A stretch of DNA of 21,502 nucleotides from an uncultured virus (IMG/VR IMGVR_UViG_3300021431_000011) (lineage: Duplodnaviria; Heunggongvirae; Uroviricota; Caudoviricetes), in IMG/VR virus record IMGVR_UViG_3300021431_000011; one strand, 5' to 3'. Positions within the stretch are counted from its first letter, which is position 1, and every line of letters begins with the position of its first letter. This document shows, piece after piece, positions 2,298 through 21,502 of this stretch. The notes under the pieces were generated by a model, which saw nothing but the letters and a program-made list of their open reading frames with translations, did not search any database and was not told the origin of the DNA. The position numbers and the translations under genes were made by a program.

Positions 2298-2305
2298 GAG
2301 ATGGT

Positions 2306-4672: not shown

Positions 4673-4674
4673 TC

Positions 4675-5760: not shown

Positions 5761-5766
5761 TCTCTT

Positions 5767-8700: not shown

Positions 8701-11700
8701 AACGACAACATTAACCTCAAGGTTTCTAAGAACGACGTAATTAATCAGATTAACGTCAGCACTGAAGGCGCTAAAATTCAGGCATCCAAGGTCGAGATCG
8801 ACGGCACTGCGATATTCTCAGCGATTAAGTCTAGTGCTGACGCCGCTTATGATGCCAAGGGTGCGGCAGCGACAGTTCAGGACAACTTAGACAATCTTGA
8901 GGTTGGTGGGAGGAATTTGCTGCCACAGACCCAGAATTGGGGCAAAGTTTCCACCAGTAATGGAACCGGAACTATCACCAGCGATATGAAAGCTGGTTGC
9001 CAAATCTTAAAGTTCGTTTGGGGTTCAGGTAGTGCTGATGTGTTCTTTACAGGGAAATGGACTAGACCATTAGAAGCAAACGCATGGTATACACTTTCCT
9101 TTTGGGCAAGAGCAGATGCGGCAATAGACTTACGCAATTATTTATGGTCCCCAGCTGTTGTAGATGAGGGACGAAATTCTGTCGGAAGAACAACATCGTC
9201 TTCTGATGGAGCAATACTAACGCCAATCACGACGTCATGGGAACGCTATTGGATTGCATGGCACGTCAAAGTGGGATCCTCTTTACCAAACAATGTTATG
9301 ATTGGTAGATTGCTGTCGGCCGGAACCGTATACTTTGCTGGTGCAAAGTTTGAAAAGGGCAACAAAGCTACTGATTGGACTCCTGCACCAGAGGACCAGA
9401 CAGCTTATGTTGATGACTCCATTTCATCGATTCAAGTTGGTGGAAGAAATCTGCTTACTGATTCAGATGACATAACAAAATGTTTCGATAGCAGCAGCAA
9501 CATAACATCTATAGTTGGTGGAAAAGCAGACCCCGATGGCGGCAATGGCGCATATTTGATAACGCCCAATACTACTAATTGGTGGGCAGGACCAAGGGGA
9601 GCACGTCTTAGACTTACTAAATTGGGTGTATCTTATACATTCTCAATTTGGTTGAGAGCAGATAATGCAACTCAATGCCGGATGTGCTGTCGCTACATGG
9701 ACTCGACACCTTATTCTAGCAATGCAACTCGCGTTAATATTAATGTCACGACCGAATGGAAGAGATTCTTTATCTCAGCTCCTCTCAAACAAGTACAGAC
9801 TGGTGATAGCGTATGGATTGGATATTTGTCAACAACACCACTCTACGTCTACCATCCAATGGTGGAAATGTCTTCAACTCCGTCGGACTGGTCTCCAGCA
9901 CCAGAGGACCAGACGGCGTACGTTGATGCCGTTAAAATCGGTGGGCGAAATCTTGCCACTGGTACGGCAAACAGCACGAACTTCAGTGGTTCTGCGGCGA
10001 CTTATTTCGCTCCAATTGGCTTCTATCCAACCAGCGATATTGGCCTGAACTTGCTCAAGGACACGTCCAACACCAAGTTCACGTTGTCGTTTGACTGGTC
10101 AACAGCCGATGTGACCACCGCATACAACATGTTTCCCGCGTTCAAGTACACGAGCACAAGCTATACAAGCCTGACGGGCGGACCGACAATCTCTGTCCCC
10201 ACAGGGGCATCGTCTGGTCACTATGAGTACACGTTCGAGCCGACAAGTGCCCAGAGGACCTACGGCACGATGTGGCTCCTGTCTAAGAACAACACGAACA
10301 CGACCCAGTGTGGCACCGTCACCATCTCCAACTTCATGTTCGAGTGCGCGAACAAGGCAAGCACTTGGACTCCTGCTCCCGAAGATGTCGCCTCCGACAT
10401 CGCTGCGGCACAAGCCACCGCCAACGCGGCGGCACCCAAGGCAAGCGCCGTCAAGCGCACACAGCGTATTTGGTATAGAACAAATGGGTCAAGTGCTCCG
10501 GCTACACCAGGAACAGCATCCTCGAACTGGGTGACCAAGGCCAACGACGGCAACGACGCATGGACCAAGATGCACATCGCCATCAACAGCACGCACAAGT
10601 ACATCTACACGTGCGAGCAGTACGAGATGGCCAATGGCACGGTGGGATACACATCTGTCCTGCTGGACAACACCATCACGGTAATCGACGGTGGCAACAT
10701 CATTACGGGTTCCGTCACGGCGAACAAACTCAATGCAGCTAACATCAATGCCAGCAAGACATTGACGGTGGGCGCGATGACCGACGCGGCTGCGAGTTCG
10801 ATTCTGAACAGCAACGTTGTCGTTGGCGGGAGGAACCTGTTCGCCGATTCCAAGGCGCTCTCAACGGCCAAATGGACTTTCGACCAAGGGGCTACGCGCG
10901 GAGATAATCTAGCGACGCTTGCCGCCAATGCAAGCTCTCGCATCTATCAGATGCCAGCATATGGATACTGGTCATGGAAGCCTAACACCGAGTATGTCGT
11001 ATCGGTCGAGGCAAAGGCATCCGCATCTGGCGGAAAAATGACGTTCAACATGGTGGGAGCTGGTGGAAACAAGCTAAAGACTTTCGATTTGACCACGAGT
11101 TGGGCTAGGTATTCTTGGGCGTTCACTTCTGACGCAACTGTGTCCACTGGTTCGGCGTCTATCTACAACAGCACAAATACTGGCACCGTACAAGTCCGCC
11201 TTCCAAAGCTCGAAGAAGGAAACAAAGCAACCGACTGGACCCCAGCACCAGAGGACCAAACCGCCTACGTCGATGATTCCGTTTCATCAATTCAGGTCGG
11301 CGGTAGGAATCTATTACTCTGGACCGCAACTCTGCCAAAGGGGTCCGACAACACTGTTAGCGGCAAAGACGGAATTGCTGCGTGGGGTGACACCTTGGGG
11401 CAGCTTATCGAAACTGATGAGGGCATAAGGCTTAATGCGGCTGGAAACAGTAACGAATGTATTGGCATCCCTCTTGCAAATAATGGCAGTGTTGGCAATA
11501 ATGAGGACGTCTTGCTCACTTTTGAGGCAAGGGGAAACATTACATCTATTGGCCAGTTCTTCTGGTTGCAGGAGTCTGGCTCGAACGTCGGATTCACCAA
11601 ATGGCTTAACGGAAACCAAACGATTTCTCTAAGCGAAACCTCGTGGACCAAATTTACAACAAACGTTAAGCATGCTCAGGCCAACATTCGCACATGCACG

Positions 11701-12831
11701 CGAATACTTATATTTTATGGACTCGGTTCCAGTAATAACGGCAAATGGGTTGAGATACGTAAAGGTACGCTTAAGCTCGAAAAGGGCAACAAAGCCACTG
11801 ATTGGACGCCAGCACCAGAGGATATGGCTACCAATTCGTCTGTTGACCAGACGTATGTTCAAAATCTTACGCCATATTTTCAGATGGATATGAGCCAAGC
11901 ATCCGATGAATACTGGGCGAATCTTACATACGCACGATTCACCAGGCTTGGCGACGGATGGGCGCATTTCGAGTATAATAATACAGGTAGTTCGACTGTT
12001 AGTAGCTACATCGGTCCGAAAGCCATTAGCACGTTGCTTCCTGGTGGCAATTATACGCTCCTTGCCGAGTTCAGGAATGTTGTTATCAGTGGCGCAACCA
12101 ATGGGTCTTTCTATTCTCAGCAAATCTCTAACGCCCAAATTTGGGGAACCGAGGCATATGGCGGCTTTTCGATTACTAATGCCCAGCTTATTGCTTTAGA
12201 GAATGGCGAAGGAAAGTTCTATAAGTCTCTCACGCTTCTTGATGCCGAATCAAAAGATCCAAGCGGCACTGTCAGAGGTACCCTACCAAAGACAATTTTC
12301 ATGACCATTAACCAGCAAGTTGCGGGTAGCCAGTCAGTATCCTATGACATCCGTCTCTCCCTCTACGAAGGCACATATACCGGACCGTACAAGCCATATT
12401 CTGGCGATGTGTTGTTTGCTACAAATACAGCGCTGACGGGCACTAACGAATCACTCGAAGGTGCCATTGCCGACATCGGCGAACTTTCAGACCAGCTTGT
12501 TGGCACCATAACGGAGCAGAACAAGACAATTACCACCATCCAGACGTATCTTAACTCATTGAGACAGGATCTTGACGCAGAGATTCAATCGCGGCAGCAG
12601 TGGCTCAACTTCGACACGGCTGAGGGTCTGGTAATCGGAGCAAAAAACAGCACGTTCAAGACGGTCACGACCAATACCTCACAGCAGTTCCGCAGCGGAG
12701 GTACGATTTTGGCAGAGACGAGTGGCACGGAGTTCGTGGCGCCCGTCATGCGCTCGGACCAGCTTCTCATAGGCAACTGGATGTGGACTAGGCGAGATAA
12801 TGGAAACCTGTCCCTCAAGTGGATTGGATAG
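5767..12831 (+). CDS. Large tail fibre / host-specificity protein with eight CBM-like modules
   Basis: 2354 aa, AGAGGT RBS upstream. Contains coiled-coil repeats, five GGRNL...W(T/S)PAPED modules, three NL(S/T)P...SLYEG.Y.GPYKPY modules, and a C-terminal LVIG...GNWMW...NGNLSLKW end typical of siphovirus fibres. Confidence 0.88.
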   Translation: MLKSEAAAYLAGVTQTEGAEASAPTNLHVITGEVGEASADGKTLVKIDGLMFSESDDQFIEVDALGGLEEGDIATIVLTGEQGHAMTPLALGSIGSVDRITVRIAAIEADYIKVEQLDAAKARIGELEADHVSVNDFNAATGRIGTLETTRATITDLNAATARIGTLEADHVSTDDFSAATARIGTLETNTADIGTIRANSAKVQNLTAAELEADHATVGSLSTNYAHITNGVIDNATIGYADVNNLSAHYAEIQNGKINSALIDTAAIVDEQVFTVTGNKATLAQIDASKINVLNLKAKDIEVERINGQPVTNKTLVDALSQHESDISDLDSKIDDEVEALNDRIDGAIETFTGTVVPTLENTPASSWNTVKLKDQHVGDVYYVVNSQSAQNGYCYRFTKSGSTYSWQLIKDSDVTAALSRLQTAEGKIGDIETFDETVGSFMTNTDDELSSLKAKDTQLETSLGDKVSTSTFNTVSQKVDTNEANITSMSTVLTNNGLTSSTNITNTVNSVKQTADTNKASITSLTQTVNNKADGSTVTTLTNRVSTVEQNLSGITTRVGKTESAIETVSNPNLSPYLSHTFGDTDYWQSASKPNKSSELGDIGTYLGDGWMHVDMDNSARSGMAYLNCFWVNSDSNITELTKYTFLVEIRNLTFSAGTKIYVRPTTNNTTASRKGQFGTTYTIDVTESKNIYQVATTRSDFSGCATISDGYVWVDAGTNASFDIRISLYEGEYSGPYKPYVDQTLIRRVKSAETAIEQNAEDITLRATKTEAYQSAQPNLSPFFSQYKDDVHSNTNSDGYWYQSSADGFPSLITTWDFEQETVNGDGWAHFVANNTATITLYAHAYVHKDALQLKPSTKYTFLVEWLDVASTGGTPVLYTTTQHGGTGGVNNDYFTTTTSASLTSGSGSKYISATTRDVLDSGCNNVIRSHIWIGTGISTSGYIRISLYEGEYAGPYKPYSGSWLYATQSELKVANDNINLKVSKNDVINQINVSTEGAKIQASKVEIDGTAIFSAIKSSADAAYDAKGAAATVQDNLDNLEVGGRNLLPQTQNWGKVSTSNGTGTITSDMKAGCQILKFVWGSGSADVFFTGKWTRPLEANAWYTLSFWARADAAIDLRNYLWSPAVVDEGRNSVGRTTSSSDGAILTPITTSWERYWIAWHVKVGSSLPNNVMIGRLLSAGTVYFAGAKFEKGNKATDWTPAPEDQTAYVDDSISSIQVGGRNLLTDSDDITKCFDSSSNITSIVGGKADPDGGNGAYLITPNTTNWWAGPRGARLRLTKLGVSYTFSIWLRADNATQCRMCCRYMDSTPYSSNATRVNINVTTEWKRFFISAPLKQVQTGDSVWIGYLSTTPLYVYHPMVEMSSTPSDWSPAPEDQTAYVDAVKIGGRNLATGTANSTNFSGSAATYFAPIGFYPTSDIGLNLLKDTSNTKFTLSFDWSTADVTTAYNMFPAFKYTSTSYTSLTGGPTISVPTGASSGHYEYTFEPTSAQRTYGTMWLLSKNNTNTTQCGTVTISNFMFECANKASTWTPAPEDVASDIAAAQATANAAAPKASAVKRTQRIWYRTNGSSAPATPGTASSNWVTKANDGNDAWTKMHIAINSTHKYIYTCEQYEMANGTVGYTSVLLDNTITVIDGGNIITGSVTANKLNAANINASKTLTVGAMTDAAASSILNSNVVVGGRNLFADSKALSTAKWTFDQGATRGDNLATLAANASSRIYQMPAYGYWSWKPNTEYVVSVEAKASASGGKMTFNMVGAGGNKLKTFDLTTSWARYSWAFTSDATVSTGSASIYNSTNTGTVQVRLPKLEEGNKATDWTPAPEDQTAYVDDSVSSIQVGGRNLLLWTATLPKGSDNTVSGKDGIAAWGDTLGQLIETDEGIRLNAAGNSNECIGIPLANNGSVGNNEDVLLTFEARGNITSIGQFFWLQESGSNVGFTKWLNGNQTISLSETSWTKFTTNVKHAQANIRTCTRILIFYGLGSSNNGKWVEIRKGTLKLEKGNKATDWTPAPEDMATNSSVDQTYVQNLTPYFQMDMSQASDEYWANLTYARFTRLGDGWAHFEYNNTGSSTVSSYIGPKAISTLLPGGNYTLLAEFRNVVISGATNGSFYSQQISNAQIWGTEAYGGFSITNAQLIALENGEGKFYKSLTLLDAESKDPSGTVRGTLPKTIFMTINQQVAGSQSVSYDIRLSLYEGTYTGPYKPYSGDVLFATNTALTGTNESLEGAIADIGELSDQLVGTITEQNKTITTIQTYLNSLRQDLDAEIQSRQQWLNFDTAEGLVIGAKNSTFKTVTTNTSQQFRSGGTILAETSGTEFVAPVMRSDQLLIGNWMWTRRDNGNLSLKWIG
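6061..6360 (+). repeat. 60-nt (20-aa) tandem repeat, about five units, within the tail fibre
   Basis: Units start at 6061, 6121, 6181, 6241 and 6301; the core is AAT(A/G)RIGTLE (e.g. gcagctaccgctcgaatcggtactcttgag). Confidence 0.9.
7483..12399 (+). repeat. Dispersed type-A modules in the tail fibre (3 copies: 7483-7995, 8104-8655, 11860-12399)
   Basis: Each has NL(S/T)P(Y/F), GDGW(M/A)H, YT(F/L)L(V/A)E and IR(I/L)SLYEG.Y.GPYKPY, with divergent interiors. Confidence 0.9.
8902..11823 (+). repeat. Dispersed type-B modules in the tail fibre (5 copies: 8902-9396, 9436-9909, 9937-10386, 10822-11256, 11296-11823)
   Basis: Each begins (V/I)GGRNL and ends W(T/S)PAPED, mostly preceded by E(K/E)GNKATD. 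Interiors are divergent beta-sandwich (CBM4/9-like) sequences. Confidence 0.92.
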
Positions 12832-12834
12832 CAT

Positions 12835-14571
12835 ATGGCAACAGCATACGGTGGATATTACACTGGGGCAGGTTATAATGCATTCCGTGCGAGGATGGAC
12901 TATTCGACCTCTGCCAGTACCGACACATCTGCGACGATTCAGGTAGTCGTTAAGTGTCAGATGGGTAGCGGTCATGACTCTGGCGGAAACTTCAGGGGAA
13001 CCGCCAACATTAATGGAAGCACGAGTTCGTGGACTGGTGGTGGTTACTACTCCGCAAGCGGAACGTACACGATGGGCACTAAGACACTGTCCATCACCAA
13101 GACACATTCGGCGCAATCCATTACAGTCAAGGCGACAGTCACATCCACATACGCATGGAGCGGTCACAGTTCCACAGCATCTGCAACGGTATCTGTACCG
13201 GCAAAGACGAGTTATAGCATAACCTACAATGCTAACACAGGCAGCGGTGCACCAGGTTCTCAGACCAAGTGGTACGGCGAGACGTTGACGCTATCAACAG
13301 CTACGCCAAAGCTTGACGGCTATGACTTCGTGGGTTGGTCTACTACGCAGAGCACTCCCGGGTCGGGAACAGCAACGTACACAGCTGGTGGCAGCTATAC
13401 GGCAAACTCGGCGACAACGCTCTATGCCGTATGGAAGCGTGCATATATTGCACCGAAAATCAGCGCACTTTCCGTATACCGCGCGTCTGACACGATTGGA
13501 ACGGCATCAGATGAGGGCAAATACTGCTATGTCAAGTGCACGTGGTCGGTTGATCAGACGCTAACCAGCGGCAATAAAGGTAAGACGCTTCTCATAGAGT
13601 ATAAGGCCGCATCTTCGACATCATGGACCTCCGCGAAGTCGGTATCTCTCACAAAAGCATCAGACACCACCCAGACGACGGCGCTCGATACAGCCAGCTT
13701 TGAAACGGGTACAACGTACCATATTCGCGTGACAGTCAGCGACACTTCTGGTCAGACGGGTAACACAGCTTCCGCTATATCGACATTATCTCCAGCGTTT
13801 TATACGTTAGACTTCGGCAACCAAGGTCATAACATAGGAATTGGGCATGCGGCTGATTTGGATTACGGCATTGACGTGGGCATCAAACTACGTTGTGATA
13901 ATGTGAATTTTGAGATTTTGGACTCTGATATTCCTCCAGCCGGCACAGATCCAAGCGGTGATGTAACTATTTGGGGCAATGGCCTCTACATGTATCCATC
14001 GATTGCAGCCGGAGAAACTGATCAAGAATTAGCCGTTGGTTATATTCGAGCTATGCATCGTGGCGATGGCTCTTGGAATCCTCGAGCTCGAGGCATTCAG
14101 ATAGAGGCTCAACGAGGAACTGGAGACAACCGAAAAACTAACGCCTTGAATCTTCTCATCGATAATAGTGGAAATAGAACTGTCGAAATATCGCATCCGG
14201 CTGCTTGGCGAGAAGCACTAGGCGAAACCGATTGGGTGAATCTTAGTCTTGGAAGCAATGCACAATCATATTCTGATTCTTGGGTTCCAAAATACAAGAG
14301 GCATCTTGGCAGTCTTGTCACTATACGAGGTGCTGTTAAACCAAAATCGCAAGTTGCTGCGGGCAATGAGCTTTTAATCGGAACGTTGCCGACCGGATTC
14401 AGACCGAGCTTGCAGTGTAACACCATTTGTCAGGGTTCTGGTGGTGCGATATTCTTGCTGGCCGTTTATGAAGACGGCAAAGTTCAGTGCGAACGTTATC
14501 GTAACGGCTCCACTAATGCCGCTATTCCAACGAGCGCATGGGTTTCGTTCTCATTCACGTTTGCTTTGTAA
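12835..14571 (+). CDS. Putative receptor-binding / baseplate protein with an InlB B-repeat (Listeria-Bacteroides repeat) and a C-terminal RBP head
   Basis: Ser/Thr-rich beta N-terminus. YSITYNANTG...GYDFVGWST...TLYAVWK at 13213-13437 matches the InlB B-repeat pattern. The C-terminal WVNLSL...VTIRGAVK...IGTLPTGFRP resembles phage RBP head domains. Confidence 0.75.
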   Translation: MATAYGGYYTGAGYNAFRARMDYSTSASTDTSATIQVVVKCQMGSGHDSGGNFRGTANINGSTSSWTGGGYYSASGTYTMGTKTLSITKTHSAQSITVKATVTSTYAWSGHSSTASATVSVPAKTSYSITYNANTGSGAPGSQTKWYGETLTLSTATPKLDGYDFVGWSTTQSTPGSGTATYTAGGSYTANSATTLYAVWKRAYIAPKISALSVYRASDTIGTASDEGKYCYVKCTWSVDQTLTSGNKGKTLLIEYKAASSTSWTSAKSVSLTKASDTTQTTALDTASFETGTTYHIRVTVSDTSGQTGNTASAISTLSPAFYTLDFGNQGHNIGIGHAADLDYGIDVGIKLRCDNVNFEILDSDIPPAGTDPSGDVTIWGNGLYMYPSIAAGETDQELAVGYIRAMHRGDGSWNPRARGIQIEAQRGTGDNRKTNALNLLIDNSGNRTVEISHPAAWREALGETDWVNLSLGSNAQSYSDSWVPKYKRHLGSLVTIRGAVKPKSQVAAGNELLIGTLPTGFRPSLQCNTICQGSGGAIFLLAVYEDGKVQCERYRNGSTNAAIPTSAWVSFSFTFAL

Positions 14572-14581
14572 GGAGGATATT

Positions 14582-15193
14582 TTGGAAACACTAATCCGTA
14601 AGGTCATGATGCCAGATGGTGTCGTCCGCAACGAGCACCGTATTACCTGTATCACAAGCCGAATTGACCAAGATACGGTTATTGATGTTGAGAGTTCTGG
14701 TGAAAACGTTTCGGGCTATATTACTAAACTTATCATTTCTCCTTATGAGGGTATTCTAACCGAGGAGCAGGCCTTTGGTATTTTAAAAAATGATCCGTTA
14801 TTCTTAGAGTGGATCGATCCTGTTCAGGATGCACTCGATGAGTTGCTCCCAATCCTGACCGACGAGCAGGCTGAGATGGTTACCAACATGTACCCCGAGT
14901 GGGCTGTTGATATTTCCTACACGGCCGGTGAGCGTGTTCAGTATAACTCGAAGCTTTACCGTTGCGTGCAGGCCCATACTTCTCAGGAGGGTTGGGAGCC
15001 GCCTACTACCACTGCTCTATGGACTCGTACGGCGCAGGAAGGCGAGATTCCCGAGTGGATTCAGCCGACTGGCGCTCAGGATGCCTATAATAAGGGCGAC
15101 AAAGTGATGCATAATGGCTCTACTTGGATTTCCGACGTCGATGCGAATGTCTGGGAACCCGGTATCTATGGATGGACGGCTAGCAATGAGTAA
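14582..15193 (+). CDS. Tail-associated protein with two CBM5/12 (chitin-binding type 3)-like domains; start corrected to TTG 14582 (203 aa)
   Basis: AGGAGG at 14571-14576 precedes TTG. Motifs PEW...YTAGERVQYNSKLYRCVQAHTSQEGWEP and PEWIQPTGAQDAYNKGDKVMHNGSTW. Confidence 0.8.
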   Translation: METLIRKVMMPDGVVRNEHRITCITSRIDQDTVIDVESSGENVSGYITKLIISPYEGILTEEQAFGILKNDPLFLEWIDPVQDALDELLPILTDEQAEMVTNMYPEWAVDISYTAGERVQYNSKLYRCVQAHTSQEGWEPPTTTALWTRTAQEGEIPEWIQPTGAQDAYNKGDKVMHNGSTWISDVDANVWEPGIYGWTASNE

Positions 15194-15875
15194 TTCTCGT
15201 GATGCAATTGTGGCATATTGCCGCAGGAACCTTGGCTGTTCTTATAGCTATACTCCGTCTGGTGGTGTTGAAGGACGATCCTATAATTGTTCCTACCTAA
15301 GCACTTGCGCATACAAAGCCGCAGGTCTTAAGATTCCAGGATGGCAGGGTCATCAAAATGGTGATGGTTCACAGTCAGATTGGGTTTATCGCAATGGTCA
15401 CTGGACTACTGATAAATCTAAGCTGAAACCAGGCGACCTTGTGTTCTTTGGTACAAGTCGCACTAATACCGGTCATGTTGGAGTGGTTAGCAGGTCAGGC
15501 ACAGTCCCTTATATTATCGACAGTACGCCAAGTCGAGGAGTAGCAGAGCGTCTGCTCCCAACTGGTGCAGGCTTTGTTGGAGGAGGCTGGCCGCTTGCTA
15601 ATCTTCCTGCAGACAGTACAAAAACGGAGGGATTTACCGTGAATAAGACAGTCACCGTTCGCAGCGACTTTCTGCGAGTTCGAGACGCCCCGAGTACCAA
15701 GACAGGCAAGGTCGTTATGAGTGGCGGCAAAGAGGTTCATTATGCTAAGGGCGATACCGTAACGATCGATTCTATCATAATTGGAGACGACGGGTATGCA
15801 TGGGGGCACTACATCGGAGCTTCTAGCAAGAAGGACCGCTATATTGCATTAGGAATCCTTGAAAACGCCCGATAA
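15186..15875 (+). CDS. Probable endolysin: NlpC/P60 cysteine peptidase plus C-terminal SH3b-like domain; start corrected to ATG 15186 (229 aa)
   Basis: The ATG overlaps the upstream stop (ATGAGTAA). Motifs YNCS (catalytic Cys), LKPGDLVFF and GHVGVV (catalytic His). The C-terminus LRVRDAPS...YAWGHY...RYIA is SH3-like. Confidence 0.82.
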   Translation: MSNSRDAIVAYCRRNLGCSYSYTPSGGVEGRSYNCSYLSTCAYKAAGLKIPGWQGHQNGDGSQSDWVYRNGHWTTDKSKLKPGDLVFFGTSRTNTGHVGVVSRSGTVPYIIDSTPSRGVAERLLPTGAGFVGGGWPLANLPADSTKTEGFTVNKTVTVRSDFLRVRDAPSTKTGKVVMSGGKEVHYAKGDTVTIDSIIIGDDGYAWGHYIGASSKKDRYIALGILENAR

Positions 15876-15905
15876 ATTAGTTTCCGTCTAATCTGGTGCT
15901 GTGAG

Positions 15906-16076
15906 ATGCAGTTTAATAAACCACTTCCAAAAGACCGATGCCCCGCCTGTGGATCATATATGTATATTCCGCAGGAGTCCATAAGGTCAACTCGCGATGG
16001 AGCTTATTTCGATTTGGTTTGCACAAATTGTACATTACGTCTTTCTAGCTATAAACCAAAGAAGAAAAAGCGTTAG
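15906..16076 (+). CDS. Small zinc-ribbon protein (56 aa), not in the ORF track
   Basis: Manual translation MQFNKPLPKDRCPACGSYMYIPQESIRSTRDGAYFDLVCTNCTLRLSSYKPKKKKR gives CxxC-x23-CxxC. It fills the intergenic gap, with GGTG upstream. Confidence 0.75.
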   Translation: MQFNKPLPKDRCPACGSYMYIPQESIRSTRDGAYFDLVCTNCTLRLSSYKPKKKKR

Positions 16077-16093
16077 AGAGGGGCAGATTTGCT

Positions 16094-17227
16094 GTGCCGA
16101 GGTCCTCCCATGAAAGTCGACGCGAGGGTTTCGTCGACCTAGCCTTAAGCTACGCGGATGACGACAGTCATGGATATTCTCAGAAGCCTCCCTCGGGTCG
16201 ATGGGGACCAGACTATGACTGTTCGTCCTTGCTATATTTTCTAGCTAATGAAGCCGGTTATCCTGTTGGTGCAGGAGGAGATAAAGTGAGGTTCACAGGA
16301 ACTATGCTGAAAGACTTCGAAAAGGCCGGCTTTCAGATTCTACCTTTTGCCAATGTTGGAATCAGCGATTTGGAGGTCGGAGATATTCTCCTAAACCTTG
16401 CTCTGCATGCCGAAGTTTATGTCGGCAACGGAGAGAGTGTCGGGGCAACCGGGAGCGAGACCGGCGGGTATGTCGGAGAAGCAGGAGACCAGACGGGTCG
16501 AGAAATTGAACGGCACCCAGTTACAACATTCGATAAGGAATGGGATTATATTCTTCGACCTCCAGCTGAGGATGAAACAGAAGAAGGTGATGAAGAAGTG
16601 CCTCCTATGAATTATAATACGGCGATGAGTCCTATGCCACAGTACAACATGCCTTCCAGCGGTACTGGACCTCAGGCATACGGTTATCCTCAGGGGAACA
16701 TGGGATATCCGCAGACCACAGTTCCGATGGGGCGTAACTATAATACCGGATACCCGCAAGGTAATCTCGGTCAGATGAACGGATATTCTCAAGCCAATGC
16801 TGGTTATCCGCAAGCTGGCATGCAGGGGTATCCGCAAGGCATGGATAACGACCTTTGCTTTGTAATGGGTATTGAGGGCGCCAAGAATCTTATGGGCACT
16901 CCTAATTCTCGTAAAGCCGTATTCGACGAGGACAAGCTTCTGATGTACCTCGTTAGCTTCGGCCCTCAGGGTTCAGTCAATGATATTCACGTATACAAAA
17001 TCGAGGAATGCTCGGAGGAAATGCCCCAGCATCTGTCGCCGCTTATGAAGCAGAACATGATGCCTATGGGCGGTGGCTTGGGTCAGCAGGATAGTTATAT
17101 TACTCGAGCGGAGTTCGATGAACTAAAGGAGATGCTGTCCAATGCCAAGCCCTCTTCACAGGCAGACCCCAATGCCTCAAAGTCCAATGGGGCAATTCAA
17201 TCCGCAAATGCAGGCAGGACCCGATAG
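16094..17227 (+). CDS. NlpC/P60-like peptidase domain fused to a low-complexity GYPQ-repeat region and an uncharacterised C-terminal domain
   Basis: GTG start. N-terminal HGYSQ...RWGPDYDCSS...GDILLN...HAEVY; acidic linker; GYPQ repeats; C-terminal FVMGIEGAK...YITRAEFDELKEML. Confidence 0.78.
   Translation: MPRSSHESRREGFVDLALSYADDDSHGYSQKPPSGRWGPDYDCSSLLYFLANEAGYPVGAGGDKVRFTGTMLKDFEKAGFQILPFANVGISDLEVGDILLNLALHAEVYVGNGESVGATGSETGGYVGEAGDQTGREIERHPVTTFDKEWDYILRPPAEDETEEGDEEVPPMNYNTAMSPMPQYNMPSSGTGPQAYGYPQGNMGYPQTTVPMGRNYNTGYPQGNLGQMNGYSQANAGYPQAGMQGYPQGMDNDLCFVMGIEGAKNLMGTPNSRKAVFDEDKLLMYLVSFGPQGSVNDIHVYKIEECSEEMPQHLSPLMKQNMMPMGGGLGQQDSYITRAEFDELKEMLSNAKPSSQADPNASKSNGAIQSANAGRTR
16682..16837 (+). 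repeat. GY(P/S)Q peptide repeats (5 GYPQ + 1 GYSQ)
   Basis: Read directly from the translation. Confidence 0.9.
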
Positions 17228-17411
17228 TCCGATGCAACGGATGATATTTAACATGCTCTATCAACGTAATCCACAATTTCGACAAATAGCAGATTCTGTT
17301 AGAGGCATGACTCCGGAACAGGCATGTCAATCTCTCGGAGTCGATATGAATCAATACAATCAAATGCAGAACATAAATCCTAATCAAATACGTCAAATGC
17401 TCGGGTTTTAA
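17142..17411 (+). CDS. Hypothetical Met/Gln/Asn/Pro-rich small helical protein
   Basis: AAGGAG about 10 nt upstream. Overlaps the previous gene by 86 nt. Motifs NPQF and GMTPEQAC. Confidence 0.72.
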   Translation: MPSPLHRQTPMPQSPMGQFNPQMQAGPDSPMQRMIFNMLYQRNPQFRQIADSVRGMTPEQACQSLGVDMNQYNQMQNINPNQIRQMLGF

Positions 17412-17426
17412 TGGAAAGGAACTATC

Positions 17427-18191
17427 ATGCCTCCTGAGACTGGTGGTGTAGCTGGTGTGGCTGGTAATTTATTAGGTGGAGGAGGAAACACTATGGGTCC
17501 TGCAGATACTCAAGCTGTTGTGAGGGGCGCTATGAATTATGGTAATGGCTACGGTTACGGTGACGGCTGGGGTGGCAGTTGCTGGTGGATCGTACTGATA
17601 TTCTTCGCTATGCTGTGGGGTGGCAATGGCTGGGGCAATAATGGTTTCCAGAATGCCATCGGTTATGAGAATCTCGCAACCTCTAATGAGGTCCAGCGTG
17701 GCTTTGACAATCAGAATAGCATGGCGAATCAGCGTGATATTCTGGCTGCTGTGTCTGGTAATGCTCTGCAAGAGATGCAGAACAATAACCAGAATACTCA
17801 GTACCTCACTGGTCAGATTAACGACAAGTATAACGAGCTCCAGCGCGATATTGCCGGCGTTGCTATGACTCAGCAGGCCGCCATGGCCCAGCAGTCCCAG
17901 TGCTGCTGTGAGACCAAGATGCTCATCTCTGACCTCGCCTCTCAGCAGCGTTACGAGTCCGCTATGCAGAATAACGCTACGATTCAGGCGATTCGTGAGG
18001 AGGGCGCTGCAATTCGTCAGCAGGCTGACCAGCGTTACATGGCCGATCAGGACCGTCGTATCGCCAAGCTCGAGATGCAGAACGCCATGGCTGGTGTCGT
18101 GCGTTACCCGATGAGCACCGCTTATAATGCTGGCTACAATCCGTTCTGCAACTGCGGTCAGAACTACGGCTGCTGCGGAATGGCTGCGTAG
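17427..18191 (+). CDS. Hypothetical protein: Gly/aromatic region, one hydrophobic segment, coiled coil, QCCCE motif, Cys-rich tail
   Basis: GAAAGGA RBS. Motifs CWWIVLIFFAMLWGG, VQRGFDNQ, QCCCETK and PFCNCGQNYGCCG. Codon use in the 3' half is strongly biased. Confidence 0.85.
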   Translation: MPPETGGVAGVAGNLLGGGGNTMGPADTQAVVRGAMNYGNGYGYGDGWGGSCWWIVLIFFAMLWGGNGWGNNGFQNAIGYENLATSNEVQRGFDNQNSMANQRDILAAVSGNALQEMQNNNQNTQYLTGQINDKYNELQRDIAGVAMTQQAAMAQQSQCCCETKMLISDLASQQRYESAMQNNATIQAIREEGAAIRQQADQRYMADQDRRIAKLEMQNAMAGVVRYPMSTAYNAGYNPFCNCGQNYGCCGMAA

Positions 18192-18245
18192 TTAAGTTTT
18201 CTGTGGGAGGTTTTTATGAGCGCTCGGGACTTAGGTAAAAACCAC

Positions 18246-18277
18246 AATCTGGGAATGGTGGGGTTCTCGGATTTTTT
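18246..18277 (+). terminator. Probable intrinsic terminator after 17427-18191
   Basis: AATCTGGGAAT (18246-18256) pairs with GTTCTCGGATT (18263-18273) with three G-U pairs and a 6-nt loop; a T6 run lies at 18272-18277. Confidence 0.6.
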
Positions 18278-18346
18278 GTAGCAATTTCAAAATGGAAGTC
18301 TTTTCAAACATTTAACCAAAAATTTTCCCAGGGGGTGATTTCGAAG

Positions 18347-18520
18347 ATGCAAGTTGAAATCGAGGAGGTTAAAGCTACAAAAACACGTGATGTACATCAT
18401 GTGCGTTTTGAGAACAAGACAGATTATCAAAAAGCAAAATGGATGCTTTCTCGAATTCCTACTACATATGCGGTCAACGACTTCACTCATACTTTATATT
18501 TTCTCGGAAAGAAGTTTTAG
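18347..18520 (+). CDS. Small hypothetical protein (57 aa)
   Basis: GGGGGTGA RBS at 18331-18338 supports ATG 18347 rather than the track start at 18335. Confidence 0.6.
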   Translation: MQVEIEEVKATKTRDVHHVRFENKTDYQKAKWMLSRIPTTYAVNDFTHTLYFLGKKF

Positions 18521-18530
18521 GAGGAACGCC

Positions 18531-18761
18531 ATGTCTCGCAGTCGAAAAAAGCATCCTCTTATTCAATGCTGCGGTGACAAGAGCTTAAAGAAATTATTCA
18601 ATCGTCGTTTTAGACGCAAGAAAGATCTCGATTTCCCTTCTTATGGAGCTTATCGTAAAGCGAATAATTCTTGGGAAATTTGTGACACTCTTATGGGTTA
18701 TTTTAATGCTGAAACAATACCTTATATAGAAGAGCGTAAGTATTGGTATTGGATGAAGTAA
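18531..18761 (+). CDS. Small basic hypothetical phage protein (76 aa, MSRSRKKHP...SWEICD type)
   Basis: AGGAGG overlapping the upstream stop, then ATG 18531; very Lys/Arg-rich. The track's start at 18354 is an over-extension. Confidence 0.75.
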   Translation: MSRSRKKHPLIQCCGDKSLKKLFNRRFRRKKDLDFPSYGAYRKANNSWEICDTLMGYFNAETIPYIEERKYWYWMK

Positions 18762-18815
18762 TACATTATGCTCTTTAGTTTTACAACACGTTTATATTTT
18801 TAGGAGCTGATAATA

Positions 18816-19220
18816 GTGCTTATTCTGACTAATGATACTAGCTTAACGCTTGGGCCTAATCAGTCCGTTACTTTTAACTTAGAAATCCTGCATACGGGTT
18901 GCGCGGAGTGCCATCGTATCAGTTCTGGCGCTGTAACTCTTCGTATGCAGCAGGCAATCTATGATATTTTCTTTAAGGCGAATATTGGCTCTACGACAGC
19001 TGGCGATGCGGCGCAACTTACCATGTTCCTGAATGGTTCGCCCATGACAGAGACGACTATGGTGTCCACAACCGCTGCTGTCGGCGATGTAAATAACGTA
19101 GCATGTGAGACTGGAGTGCGTACGTGCTGCTGCGGTCCCGAGACGCTTACAATTGTGAATAATGGCGAGACGACGGTTGTAGTTGAGCAGCCTCTTCTAA
19201 AGATTAAGAGGGTTGCTTAA
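18816..19220 (+). CDS. Beta-sandwich protein resembling the BclA C-terminal (C1q/TNF-like) domain, Cys-rich
   Basis: AGGAG then GTG. All-beta alternating pattern (SVTFN, SGAVTL, IYDIFFKANI, LTMFLNG, LTIVNNG, LKIKRVA), with CAECH and TCCCG. The fold call is by resemblance only. Confidence 0.65.
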   Translation: MLILTNDTSLTLGPNQSVTFNLEILHTGCAECHRISSGAVTLRMQQAIYDIFFKANIGSTTAGDAAQLTMFLNGSPMTETTMVSTTAAVGDVNNVACETGVRTCCCGPETLTIVNNGETTVVVEQPLLKIKRVA

Positions 19221-19222
19221 AC

Positions 19223-19573
19223 ATGACAATTAATTTACCTGCTGGATTGATATTTCAGACCATTCTTACTGGAACGGTTGGATGGCTGGTTAAACTTGTA
19301 TTAGACACACTTAAAAATTATAGTGACGAGAGTAAAGCTTGGCGCAAAAAGATGGATGAAAAAATGGATGGTATTGGAGATGCCACTCAGGCAACCATGC
19401 GTACCACCATTCTTCATTATTGCGAAAAGTATATTACTCGTGGGTGGATTACCTCAGAAGAGCTTAGTTCACTCATGGACATGCACAAAAAGTATACCGT
19501 CATAAATCCTAAGAACGGTTTTATAGATTCATATGTTGAACGCGTCAAGCAACTTGAGATTCGGGAAGTTTAG
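19223..19573 (+). CDS. Holin-like / lysis-associated protein with an N-terminal hydrophobic anchor
   Basis: Hydrophobic N-terminal ~28 aa, then a helical region MRTTILHYCEKYITRGWI...KY...NG matching a common lysis-adjacent phage family pattern. Confidence 0.55.
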   Translation: MTINLPAGLIFQTILTGTVGWLVKLVLDTLKNYSDESKAWRKKMDEKMDGIGDATQATMRTTILHYCEKYITRGWITSEELSSLMDMHKKYTVINPKNGFIDSYVERVKQLEIREV

Positions 19574-19587
19574 GAAAGGATATTTTT

Positions 19588-20025
19588 ATGGCTGAGGTTG
19601 ATGAGAAAAAGATTGCTGTTAAGGCGCCTATTCATCCCCATTATGCTATCAAGAATTCGGATGGTTGGGGTGCTGAAATGCTCGGTGTTGAGGCTATGGA
19701 TGGTAGCGATATTGACTATGCTGGCATTTTAGGTTTACCTATTATTGGTTTTACTATCGAAGCTGCTGATATTCTCAAGGCGCGTGTTCGCAATAAACGT
19801 GGTAAGTGGCTTCCTTATAAAACTGGTTTTGGCATGAACAAGGCCGAGGCTCTTGGTGATGATACGCCCATTACTGGCATTGAGATTGTCGGAGCAGGTT
19901 TTATATTTAGTATTCATGCTAAAGGCGGTTCTTGGTTACCGGTTATGAAGACAAGCGATACCGAGGGTACTACTTTAGCTGTTGCCGGTTCATCTATTGA
20001 TGCTATTTGGATTGATAAGGTTTAA
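19588..20025 (+). CDS. Stand-alone protein of degenerate ChW-like (hydrophobic-W) repeats, putative surface/cell-wall binding
   Basis: GAAAGGA RBS. Three repeats: SDGW...DYAGILGLPI, RVRNKRGKWLP...PITGIEI and IHAKGGSWLP...SIDAIWI. Confidence 0.6.
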   Translation: MAEVDEKKIAVKAPIHPHYAIKNSDGWGAEMLGVEAMDGSDIDYAGILGLPIIGFTIEAADILKARVRNKRGKWLPYKTGFGMNKAEALGDDTPITGIEIVGAGFIFSIHAKGGSWLPVMKTSDTEGTTLAVAGSSIDAIWIDKV

Positions 20026-20055
20026 AAATTAATCTATCATTAAAAGGATTCTATC

Positions 20056-20229
20056 ATGATTATTAACATAGGCGAACTTATTAATAAACGTGGAAATGGT
20101 AATCGTCGTTCTCGCAAGAAGATAGACATTATAGACAATCGTCCTACTTCAGCATCTATCGAAGAAGCCAAAGCTAAGGTGCAGGAAATTATTGAGCGAG
20201 GTAAAAAGAAGCGCGATGCCGATGTTTGA
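20056..20229 (+). CDS. Small basic hypothetical protein (57 aa), not in the ORF track
   Basis: AAAAGGA upstream. Translation MIINIGELINKRGNGNRRSRKKIDIIDNRPTSASIEEAKAKVQEIIERGKKKRDADV; same strand as its neighbours. Confidence 0.6.
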   Translation: MIINIGELINKRGNGNRRSRKKIDIIDNRPTSASIEEAKAKVQEIIERGKKKRDADV

Positions 20230-20328
20230 AGACGCAGCAATTAATTTATGTAGAATCATAGGGATTATAATAGTCGTATGCTGTTTCGGATCAATACTAT
20301 ACAACGACTATTAATAAAATTCAAAATG

Positions 20329-20387
20329 GAAATCCAAAGTTCTATAAATTTTATTATGGAGCTTTGGGTTTCTTTTTTTTCTTTTTT
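20329..20387 (+). terminator. Strong intrinsic terminator
   Basis: 19-bp stem 20329-20347 / 20354-20372 (16 Watson-Crick + 3 G-U, no true mismatch), 6-nt loop, followed by T8-C-T6. Confidence 0.88.
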
Positions 20388-20448
20388 ATAGACTCGACTT
20401 TTTCCGTCGGGATTTTTCAGAAAACAAAATCGGAGGAGATAATGCACG

Positions 20449-21342
20449 ATGGACAAATATTTGGCTCATCATGGTATTCTCGGCCAAAAATGGGGTAAAC
20501 GTAATGGTCCACCTTACCCACTTAAAGGAGGTTCATATACGCCAACAGAGCGTAAAGCCATTAAAGAAGCTAGAAAGAAAAAATATAGTCGCTACAATAA
20601 AAAGCATTATGATGAAGTATTGAGTAAAGGTACTGTTTTTAAAACGCTTAGTATGGATCCAAATCGTACTAAAAATGCCGATATGTTTTTTGCATCGCAT
20701 ACTAAAGCGGATGTCGATCATTATAAAGAATTTTTCGATAAAAAAGTCCCGCAAACAGTCTATGACAGTAATGGAAATGCTATCGGTACCGGAATGTTTT
20801 ATAAATATTCTATCCAAAATGTTGCTAACAAAGATATTAAGATAGCATCAGAAGATAGCGGTGCCACTGCTTTTCGAAAATTATATGAAACAGATCGAGA
20901 TTTTTATAATTTTATTACGGATCCATCTCGACTTAGACAACGTTTTGAGGATGGTGTTCATCGAATCAGCCCTGGTTATGAAACTGCTCGTAGAACCATG
21001 AACAAAATGCAAGATCCGAGTTATATTCCGACTGATAAAGATCTAGATCTTGTATATCGAATTTTTAATCATGCTATTCCTAGCGATGGTAATGGCAATG
21101 AACGAGATGCTCATGATGTCCAAGTTCAGCGAGCAAAATTTTTTAATGAACTTAAGAAAAATGGTTATGATGCTGTATTAGACACCAATGATGCATTATA
21201 TAATACAGTACAAGCTCAATCTCCAGTAATTGTATTCAACATGGACGCAATTACTTTACAGGGTTCATATCGCACTACTATGGGTGAGGTTTATAAATCT
21301 AAAGCATTTACTGCTGGACGAAGAATACTTGGTCAGATGTAA
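20449..21342 (+). CDS. Phage protein with an N-terminal HHGILGQKWG leader and a possible ADP-ribosyltransferase-like C-terminal domain
   Basis: GGAGGAG RBS. YLAHHGILGQKWGKRNGPPYPL leader; C-terminal LKKNGYDAVLDTND...SPVIVFN. Confidence 0.7.
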   Translation: MDKYLAHHGILGQKWGKRNGPPYPLKGGSYTPTERKAIKEARKKKYSRYNKKHYDEVLSKGTVFKTLSMDPNRTKNADMFFASHTKADVDHYKEFFDKKVPQTVYDSNGNAIGTGMFYKYSIQNVANKDIKIASEDSGATAFRKLYETDRDFYNFITDPSRLRQRFEDGVHRISPGYETARRTMNKMQDPSYIPTDKDLDLVYRIFNHAIPSDGNGNERDAHDVQVQRAKFFNELKKNGYDAVLDTNDALYNTVQAQSPVIVFNMDAITLQGSYRTTMGEVYKSKAFTAGRRILGQM

Positions 21343-21356
21343 GGAGTATAAGTATT

Positions 21357-21502
21357 ATGATTCTTAGTAACAAATATTACGATCTTCTTAAATGGATTGC
21401 ACTTATTGTTCTTCCCGCTCTCGGTACTTTATATTTTGGACTTGCTAGGATTTGGGGACTCCCGTTCGGTGAGGAAATTGTTGGTACTATTACTGTTATC
21501 GA
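21357..21502 (+). CDS. Phage holin, Dp-1 family, 3'-truncated
   Basis: AAGGAG at 21341-21346. Translation MILSNKYYDLLKWIALIVLPALGTLYFGLARIWGLPFGEEIVGTITVI... matches the Dp-1 holin pattern. Confidence 0.85.
   Translation, partial: MILSNKYYDLLKWIALIVLPALGTLYFGLARIWGLPFGEEIVGTITVI

Follow-up and report, generated by a model that had tools for sequence, protein, structure and literature searches.

A recurrent late-gene cassette with a BclA-type knob in tailed phages of the gut and rumen

Among the late genes of an uncultured tailed phage (IMG/VR record IMGVR_UViG_3300021431_000011) lie four genes, denoted A, B, C, and D, that occupy positions 16094 to 19220 on the plus strand of the 21,502-nucleotide stretch analysed here, termed the window. 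Judged by comparison with related loci, they are the window phage's copy of a portable, optional late-gene cassette carried by many tailed phages of the gut and rumen. The recurring unit is written A'-B-C-D, where A' (16598–17227) is the C-terminal 209 aa of the gene A product. It is very likely a functional module, because it is common, well ordered, optional between near-identical phages, and movable. Only D, termed the knob, resembles anything studied; nothing described as a system of lysis, of fibres, of the exosporium, or of defence matches the whole cassette in the libraries covered, and full-text literature searches (titles and abstracts) found no description of an A'-B-C-D cassette. 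The reading preferred here, a tentative one, is that the proteins could form a late-made, membrane-anchored rod-and-knob complex that acts at the envelope around lysis or egress.

Recurrence and mobility of the cassette

The survey of related loci drew on 16 IMG/VR loci seeded with C, eight seeded with D, five GTDB contigs, and 80 more loci found with a C profile, some of them repeats. Open reading frames (ORFs) were called in all loci, hidden Markov models (HMMs) were made from alignments built in this work, and the neighbours of C were clustered; the set, which draws mainly on viromes of ruminants and of the gut, holds 85 distinct C sequences. Co-occurrence was counted given the presence of C. 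Where no less than 1.5 kb of upstream DNA is available (82 distinct C loci), A' is present in 75 and B in 73. D is present in 56 of the 79 distinct loci with at least 1 kb downstream, and another small cysteine-bearing, beta-type protein occupies the position after C in 13 more (69 of 79 together). The full A'-B-C-D set is found at the HMM thresholds in 56 of 76 distinct loci with both flanks, counts that hold some false negatives: A' can be seen by eye in L022 and L024, and B is assigned through PHROGs in L030 and L031.

The order and adjacency of A', B, C, and D are kept to about 25–30% identity and across differing genome positions. The four families are phrog_21718, phrog_22984, phrog_16490, and phrog_20016, respectively, all of "unknown function" in PHROGs, with the assignment of B derived from Dulem virus copies. 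Dulem virus 33 and Dulem virus 35, complete GenBank phages from lemur faeces, carry the four families in order and then phrog_28802, with all cassette genes annotated "hypothetical protein". The initial annotation of the window, made from its letters alone, had described this gene set as recurring in gut phages under hypothetical names only. The gene-neighbourhood analysis bears this out in gut and rumen phage contigs with 85 distinct C loci; co-occurrence elsewhere, on which that proposal had been staked, was looked for and held across divergent phages. Curated phage genomes hold no DNA match to positions 15900–19600, no protein match to C at E ≤ 1e-3, and only seven distant matches to D.

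It is extremely improbable that there is no system here and that four unrelated hypothetical genes happen to adjoin in a variable region, given that order and adjacency persist at such divergence and in differing genome positions. The Dulem viruses and the distant IMG/VR loci further argue against an artefact of sampling a single lineage. What speaks for chance adjacency is that D and A-B-C can occur apart, and that other small ORFs (s1 and s2, below) are inserted between C and D in the window.

The optional nature of the cassette is seen in contig L018, whose DNA is 89.6% identical to the window over 12350–16096 and 94.5% identical over 18197–20429 (blastn). L018 is without exactly positions 16097–18196, which hold genes A, B, and C (a 2,101-bp difference); D stays, and D with its downstream genes is 97–99% identical in protein. 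The edges of the insertion or deletion, placed by blastn breakpoints at 16096 and 18197 and by a three-way alignment, coincide with two copies of a 9-nt direct repeat, the left copy TTTGCTGTG at 16088–16096 and the right copy TTTTCTGTG at 18197–18205. The repeat is single copy in L018. In ruminant-gut metagenomes (four runs from four studies), contigs span the zinc-ribbon-like gene upstream of the cassette together with A, B, and C, one of them a 2190-nt contig over 15816–18004. The junction without A-B-C (16096 to 18197) is not on any contig of these four runs.

Two small plus-strand genes lie between C and D in the window clade. One, s1 (18335–18520), encodes 61 aa and has homologues in related loci; it is itself optional, as contigs of three of the four metagenome runs join 18321 or 18334 to 18519, and one contig joins C, s2, and D with s1 skipped. 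The other, s2 (18531–18761), encodes a basic protein of 76 aa (pI 9.8) with no family match in Pfam or PHROGs. Genes A to C had been described as ending in a terminator, which did not hold up. The candidate is a weak plus-strand hairpin with a T run (18246–18283, hairpin 18246–18273) that stands outside the cassette, in the flank common to L018, and terminator-like sites are as frequent in 15000–20500 as expected from shuffles (five found versus 5.0). Promoter-like sites are likewise no commoner than in shuffles.

The cassette is found in several genomic positions. In Dulem virus 35 it is flanked on one side by the gene of a minor head protein and on the other by those of the scaffold and the major head, in Dulem virus 33 it comes after an amidase and before an integrase, and elsewhere it stands beside resolvase, integrase, or tail-fibre genes. 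Foreign genes may be inserted with the order unbroken: a nucleoside 2-deoxyribosyltransferase-like gene lies between A' and B in L024 (4503–4823), and an endonuclease gene on the minus strand lies between B and C in Dulem virus 33 (L030, 5386–5937).

Other proteins accompany the cassette in its more distant forms. In 14 loci (for example, L064 5610–5954), the place of D immediately behind C is taken by an unrelated protein of 107–135 aa with an N-terminal CxC(C) motif. This protein was considered as a relative of D and rejected; it is not counted as one because hhalign against the D profile gave a probability of 1% (11 members aligned). A cluster of small proteins of about 95–130 aa is encoded at a distance of two or three genes beyond C in 20 of the 85 distinct loci (L074 6242–6532 and 19 others). 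Five of the six members of this cluster that were scanned match Pfam Rubrerythrin, one of them above the cut-off (26.8 versus 22.8 bits), which may hint at iron or redox chemistry in the distant cassettes; the window copy is without a gene of this type. Further partners after D in distant cassettes are a helical protein of about 188 aa, phrog_28802, and a 127-aa HELGH protein.

Five GTDB contigs match C, and the labels of their metagenome-assembled genomes (MAGs) are inconsistent. The "Lachnospiraceae" MAG behind L025 (G002) holds C homologues on at least seven contigs and is probably a collection of phage contigs; MAG taxon labels are therefore not to be read as hosts. No C homologue was found in the 400 other genomes sampled from the phylum of a second MAG that carries C (G003).

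The proteins of the cassette

Gene D (18816–19220, plus strand) encodes a protein of 134 aa with six cysteines, three of them in a TCCCG motif. Its AlphaFold2 (AF2) model is a compact all-beta domain (predicted local distance difference test, pLDDT, 95.6) that begins at residue 2, without an N-terminal anchoring region. The top Foldseek matches of this model are BclA (3twi, 1wck) and F-BclA (9h38), the latter the tip protein of F-ENA, with E values of 8e-9 to 1e-7, TM scores of 0.71–0.74, and 22–23% identity; ExsFA/BxpB, C1q, TNF-family heads, and some phage knobs (e.g., 8ke9 and 9eul) occupy the next ranks. In BFVD, the best matches are stand-alone proteins of about 135 aa from uncultured gut phages (TM 0.8–0.9), two of them named "BclA protein", and phage tail-fibre entries also match. 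A profile of 52 family members matches BclA chains at E 2e-8 over residues 11–133 and F-BclA at 1.6e-5, while the window sequence taken singly has no Pfam and no PDB match and nothing above threshold in NCBIfam. By fold and by family profile, D is a stalk-less homologue of the BclA C-terminal domain, a stand-alone jelly roll of the BclA/C1q/TNF type, which agrees with the BclA/C1q-like sandwich first proposed for it.

No collagen-like repeat is found by Pfam in the cassette genes of the window. The CC(C) motif of D, at residues 104–106, is kept in 65–81% of the 52 relatives, and the D family comprises 90 clusters. A CAECH sequence in D was considered as a haem-binding CXXCH motif and rejected, its first cysteine and its histidine varying across the family.

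Gene C (17427–18191, plus strand) encodes a protein of 254 aa with eight cysteines, termed the rod. A Gly run near the N-terminus precedes a hydrophobic segment (residues 48–66) with Gly/aromatic flanks, QCCCE lies at residues 158–162 (CCC at 159–161), and the C-terminus is cysteine-rich. The cysteine-bearing region reads from its sequence as largely helical, and the plan of a Gly/aromatic region, a hydrophobic segment, and a helical part agrees with the one first drawn for C. CCC is kept in 99% of 76 family members, and a VRYPMSTAYNAG-NPFCNCG motif and the C-terminal cysteine cluster are also well kept in the family. In the 76 diverse members, hydropathy over 15 residues of the hydrophobic segment has a median of 2.09. 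The stretch N-terminal to this segment has a median of 26 aa and carries 0.57 Lys plus Arg, versus 1.92 in the 40 aa that follow, a pattern present in 70 of 76; this charge pattern slightly favours a topology in which the N-terminus faces outward and the rod is cytoplasmic.

The C family is large, with at least 3961 clusters at 90% identity (E ≤ 1e-3), and the 120 family records listed carry no Pfam domain and no name except "hypothetical protein". C, A', and B have no Pfam match even at E up to 5 and no NCBIfam match at E up to 0.1. In PDB sequence searches, the window proteins alone match nothing, and the C, A', and B profiles give nothing below E 0.049. C matches no holin family in Pfam, PHROGs, or NCBIfam, and the ESM Atlas returned only unnamed viral clusters for C and for the membrane protein encoded after D. 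A spanin was considered for C and rejected, as the lysins are of types that speak for a Gram-positive host and a lipoprotein partner is missing. No signal sequence is apparent at the N-terminus of A, B, C, or D when the sequences are read by eye. In some loci (L011–L013, L046–L048, and L059), the C frame under translation table 11 starts about 180 nt after the start of the tblastn match and many short ORFs are present, which suggests a reassigned stop codon or frameshifts.

Gene B (17142–17411, plus strand) encodes a P/Q/M/N-rich protein of 89 aa (Q 18%, P 12%, M 12%, N 9%) with a small conserved C-terminal region that reads as helical in an alignment of 14 homologues. A B homologue has a sub-threshold UBQLN1-like match (E 0.2), with nothing above threshold for B. 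The reading frames of A and B overlap by 86 nt in the window, in different frames, whereas the stand-alone A' and B genes overlap by 4–8 nt; the gap between B and C is 15 nt. The tight spacing noted at the outset for A to C is thus accurate, and the low-complexity genes A and B, which are translationally coupled, stand directly upstream of C.

Gene A proved longer than first described. The frames and listed features of B, C, and D had been given exactly, including composition, cysteine counts, and the CCC motifs; the "A" of the initial annotation is not a separate ORF, being the A' part of a 377-aa ORF (16094–17227, plus strand). The product consists of an ELLD domain, an acidic linker, a G/Y/P/Q/N-rich region, a beta mini-domain of about 50 aa, a helix, and an S/N/Q tail. 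Residues 40–114 score 36.4 bits (E 6e-9) against the Pfam family ELLD ("endolysin-like domain"), whose cut-off is 27, and the product also matches the ELLD-type phrog_14030. DCSS and LALHAEVYVG motifs are present in the window product and in 11 of 11 full-length homologues; by analogy with NlpC/P60 and CHAP, they are read as the cysteine and histidine of a papain-type hydrolase, whose activity is putative. A passage of PMC11440229 applies "endolysin-like domain" to part of a podophage ejection protein.

The boundary between the ELLD domain and A' carries a candidate internal start (16584–16600, plus strand), in which a Shine-Dalgarno (SD)-like AGGTGA is followed after 8 nt by an in-frame GTG at 16598, with an ATG at 16607. 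Of 15 distinct fused genes, 13 contain the DNA motif GAAGAAGGTGA and one more contains GAAGAGGGTGA. Among 134 codon columns of gene A with an invariant residue, the third base is invariant in five, and two of these five fall in the SD-like motif. An internal start at 16598 is plausible because the motif is kept with unusual wobble conservation, the use of the start codon being predicted. The motif would be either a working internal ribosome-binding site or a relic of gene fusion.

A' is encoded as a stand-alone protein in most relatives. An A' profile search gave 3328 representatives at 50% identity (E ≤ 1e-3), the majority of 100–170 aa, and among the best 150 of these, most are 95–200 aa long and just seven exceed 230 aa. 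Of the matches scanned, 20 of 25 belong to phrog_21718, and four of seven long ones carry the ELLD-type phrog_14030. These proteins share an N/Q/P/Y/G-rich N-terminus, the mini-domain of about 50 residues, and the helix. The AF2 model of full-length A has a mean pLDDT of 48, with the ELLD part poorly modelled and confidence confined to residues 252–305 (pLDDT 80–94), a short helix with three strands; a helix at 338–348 is modelled at a pLDDT of about 50. The small domain and helix first noted in A correspond to these two elements. A fold search with the mini-domain found no match (best Z 3.4), a result that shows neither a known nor a new fold, and A' matches no known wall-binding domain in Pfam, the fold search, or the PDB profile search.

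Nothing in the region varies more between other metagenomes than the G/Y/P/Q-rich stretch of gene A (16603–16760). In three of the four runs (X2, X5, X8), contigs skip or replace 132–156 nt within it, one of them exchanging 138 letters for 141.

The ELLD-A' fusion is found in 15 of the 85 distinct loci, all 15 of them relatives of the window. In L079, a separate ELLD gene lies upstream of A', and in L025 a second ELLD protein (a paralogue) also matches Amidase_5. In all 15 fusion loci, C starts with a Gly-run extension (MGENxVLGGGG; MPPET...LLGGGG in the window), and in loci with stand-alone A' (e.g., L007, L009, L026, and the L050–L110 set), C starts about where the extension ends. This association allows a reading in which the papain-type domain of A would cleave the Gly-run leader of C (MPPET...LLGGGG|NTMGPAD), giving a secreted or surface product matured by proteolysis, or else a device for exclusion or counter-defence, whose mature rod and knob would act on competitors, incoming phages, or host defences.

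Such maturation is quite improbable, even though an optional and portable unit would suit an accessory function of this kind. It is kept as a minor rival because the association of fusion and leader is that of one clade, and hence probably one evolutionary event, and because it is broken by L079, which has a separate ELLD and no Gly leader, and by L003, which has a leader and no A. The domain itself matches wall-hydrolase families (ELLD, with Amidase_5 in the L025 paralogue); gene A has no C39 peptidase match, though C39 and ELLD are both papain-like folds and A might yet act in processing. No transporter gene is recognised in the window in Pfam and PHROG scans. As for exclusion or defence, PADLOC gives no match among 11 window proteins (E ≤ 0.01), and the late-gene orientation with promoter-like sites at shuffle level is unlike that of exclusion genes expressed from prophages.

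Possible roles at the envelope and on the virion

In the window, the cassette sits in the 5.5 kb that separates an endolysin gene (15114–15875) from a Dp-1-type holin gene (from 21357). The lysis neighbours named in the initial annotation are therefore real as far as these two genes are concerned; the gene directly after D (19223–19573) matches no holin family in Pfam, PHROGs, or NCBIfam. We infer a Gram-positive host because of the lysin types and the holin family. A complete endolysin also stands directly upstream in L006, L025, and L028, as in the window, while in L001, L005, and L008 no wall hydrolase other than gene A is recognised in the locus holding the Dp-1 holin. When the two ORFs 5' of the cassette were scanned against PHROGs in 77 other loci (143 ORFs), 17 loci had a "lysis" match and one a head match; apart from the fibre and DNA-metabolism matches given below, the remainder was uninformative.

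The envelope reading is preferred because C looks membrane-anchored, because the soluble parts have no apparent N-terminal signal sequence, because lysis genes are the commonest identifiable neighbours, and because the sole domain fusion is to a wall hydrolase. The fusion of A' to a wall-hydrolase-like domain in the window clade, in particular, points to the envelope rather than to a matrix. Late in infection, C would insert by its hydrophobic segment into the cytoplasmic membrane of the host, its N-terminus most likely facing outward and its rod inward, in the cytoplasm. The helical part of C would oligomerise and be stapled by metal or disulphide at the CCC layer and the C-terminal cysteine cluster. 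D, which would be trimeric if it resembles BclA, would bind the C rod, and A' and B would attend to the sticky stretches of C, Gly/aromatic and hydrophobic, in the role of adaptor or chaperone. The complex would then act at the cell envelope around lysis or egress, in the window clade bringing a cell-wall hydrolase there, as an accessory device essential neither to lysis nor to the virion.

Several observations weigh against this picture. That A'-B-C-D form one complex is what we infer, as are its location and role. C stands without a recognisable D in L002 and L016, and together with the D of L018, which lacks A-B-C, these loci indicate that D and C are not strictly interdependent. The call on the topology of C is weak because both flanks of its hydrophobic segment are net acidic. 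The ELLD fusion is limited to one clade and may say little about the cassette generally. In Dulem virus 35, the endolysin is about 15 kb away from the cassette, and the upstream scan also gave tail-fibre or fibre-assembly matches in about 11 of the 77 loci and DNA-metabolism or integration matches in eight. Finally, BclA-like knob folds are typical of phage receptor-binding fibres, as with 8ke9, 9eul, and the tail-fibre entries of BFVD.

The last two points lead to an accessory virion fibre or decoration, the main rival, which is less likely than the envelope reading but nearly as good. C would here be an alpha-helical stalk with its N-terminal Gly/hydrophobic end in the tail or head, D a separate receptor-binding knob, and A' and B fibre-assembly chaperones. 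The cassette follows the tail-fibre block in the window (tail genes 15–14571), as in those 11 or so other loci, lies inside the head module in Dulem virus 35, and is co-oriented with the adjoining structural and lysis genes in the window and the loci examined. The fold of D matches phage knob domains and many phage proteins in BFVD. Presence or absence between near-identical phages is typical of accessory fibres, and this is how A-B-C behaves. A fibre is harder to reconcile with the many loci that place the cassette after the endolysin, outside the structural block, and with a knob that is its own polypeptide and has no stalk-attachment extension. The hydrophobic segment of C, at its median hydropathy, resembles a membrane span, none of the four families has a structural annotation in PHROGs, and a fibre chaperone fused to a wall hydrolase would be odd.

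The initial annotation had itself envisaged a self-assembling structure, in which an extracellular, disulphide-crosslinked matrix or coat would bundle or protect virions or lysing cells after lysis, like an occlusion body or exosporium. Several features fit such a coat: D is a true homologue of the BclA C-terminal domain and also resembles ExsFA/BxpB, CC(C) motifs are kept in both C and D, several partners are low-complexity and aromatic-rich, and the Rubrerythrin matches in the small protein cluster that accompanies the cassette in 20 of 85 loci could hint at redox chemistry. Nevertheless, a coat is highly unlikely. No relative of ExsY/CotY, CdeC, or other coat proteins is found in Pfam or NCBIfam, and C bears an apparent membrane anchor with a charge pattern that slightly favours a cytoplasmic rod. 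A, B, C, and D have no apparent N-terminal signal sequence, A-B-C is lost while D is kept in L018, and A' is fused to a cell-wall-hydrolase-like domain in the window clade.

Returning to the envelope, a more specific and unlikely version of the rod-and-knob complex may be drawn for single-membrane (Gram-positive) anaerobes of the gut. It would be a new type of nanomachine, in which a chaperone-delivered, membrane-anchored coiled-coil rod with a triple-cysteine metal or redox staple and a BclA-type trimer cap tethers or gates a cell-wall hydrolase and so controls the last breach of the envelope or the release of virions, possibly with oxygen or redox state as the cue. Its function would be comparable to that of spanins, which serve double-membrane hosts. 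If the cassette acts at the envelope, it would be a new component of a Gram-positive lysis or egress pathway; if it encodes a fibre, gut phages would have a new design for recognising hosts, in which stalk and knob are split. The pair formed by the window phage and L018, with and without A-B-C, and the conserved candidate internal start in gene A are direct experimental handles.

Window setting and comparison with known systems

The window covers late genes of a tailed phage, every one of them on the plus strand (table 11). It opens with a tape-measure protein (15–2297), a Ricin-B-lectin tail protein (2306–4672), and a 2354-aa tail protein with repeated segments (5767–12831). The last of these has matches in many PHROG families labelled tail, "host range and adsorption", or "virion structural", and GC reaches 0.50–0.55 inside its gene. 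A 578-aa protein with a Listeria-Bacteroides repeat (12835–14571) and a CBM5/12 protein (14441–15193) follow. The CBM5/12 ORF overlaps its neighbours on both sides, the 578-aa gene at that gene's end and the endolysin ORF at its beginning, which leaves the true starts of the CBM5/12 gene and the endolysin uncertain. The endolysin has an NlpC/P60 (CHAP-like) catalytic domain (Pfam NLPC_P60 E 3.4e-9, CHAP E 4.3e-7) and a C-terminal SH3-like wall-binding part, and its residues 166–251 match PHROG endolysin families 1309 and 489. Between it and gene A lies a 56-aa zinc-ribbon-like protein with four cysteines (15906–16076), which has a weak, sub-threshold match to Pfam Zn_Ribbon_TF and is kept in L018 at 93% identity.

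Directly after D, positions 19223–19573 encode a single-pass membrane protein of 116 aa (phrog_4105/4257). Its family is present in 22 of the 85 distinct C loci and stands directly after D in most window-clade loci; nothing is above threshold for it in relaxed Pfam or NCBIfam searches, with XhlA sub-threshold at E 0.13. Two further genes, g16 (145 aa) and g17 (57 aa), at 19588–20229, accompany D and the membrane protein in the window clade. The Dp-1-type holin (PF16938; 21357–21502) is truncated by the end of the window and scores 73.9 bits for the 48 aa inside it. Contig L017, which is 100% identical to window positions 18172–21502, holds the complete 68-aa ORF at 104.9 bits. The gene before the holin, g18 (20449–21342), and the gene after it (L017 3439–4449) share an N-terminal motif, YLAHHGIxGQKWGxR (Pfam DUF7211), and several paralogues with this motif are dispersed among related loci.

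One system with which the cassette can be compared is the exosporium nap of the Bacillus cereus group. D has the same jelly roll as the C-terminal domains of BclA and F-BclA and as ExsFA (BxpB) of the nap and the F-ENA appendages (1wck, 3twi, 9h38, 9h3d, 8d02, 7r5i; Foldseek E 8e-9 to 1e-5, TM 0.68–0.74). Like ExsFA, D is a stand-alone domain, of about 135–165 aa, encoded beside a cysteine-rich partner. Unlike BclA, it has no collagen-like stalk and no N-terminal targeting region. The nap and basal layer comprise BclA, ExsFA, and ExsY/CotY, whereas the partner of D is the membrane-type protein C, which reads as alpha-helical and has no detectable relation to ExsY/CotY. Also unlike exosporium genes, A-B-C-D are phage late genes.

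Among lysis proteins, some Gram-positive phage endolysins that join a catalytic to a wall-binding domain, those of the CTP1L and CD27L type, also make their C-terminal domain alone from an internal start. Gene A resembles them in joining an N-terminal wall-hydrolase-like domain through a linker to a small C-terminal domain, and in carrying a conserved internal SD-like motif and start codon at the domain boundary. It is also like an endolysin in that it is the sole hydrolase recognised near the holin in three relatives. In contrast to these endolysins, A' is usually a protein of its own, held in fixed order with B, C, and D and not accompanied by a hydrolase, and the window phage has a separate, complete endolysin (15114–15875). 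XhlA of PBSX, an accessory lysis membrane protein, works with the holin XhlB and the amidase XlyA. Like XhlA, C would sit in the membrane without being a holin, extend a long helical part into the cytoplasm, and have its gene between those of the endolysin and the holin; in Dulem virus 35, an XhlA-like gene (phrog_937) is found upstream of the cassette at a distance of two genes. C differs from XhlA in having no sequence relation to it, a larger size, many cysteines, an anchor near the N-terminus, and three fixed partners. It differs from holins in being dispensable, as it is missing in the near-identical L018 and the window phage has its own Dp-1-type holin.

Cassettes of the lambda Stf/Tfa type are optional side-tail-fibre genes with assembly chaperones. 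The A'-B-C-D cassette is like them in being optional between close relatives, portable, and late-oriented, with a knob fold resembling a receptor-binding tip and small helper genes adjoining. It is unlike them in that knob and stalk are separate genes, the stalk C contains a hydrophobic segment of the membrane type, the position of the cassette is often past the endolysin, and its families carry no tail annotation.

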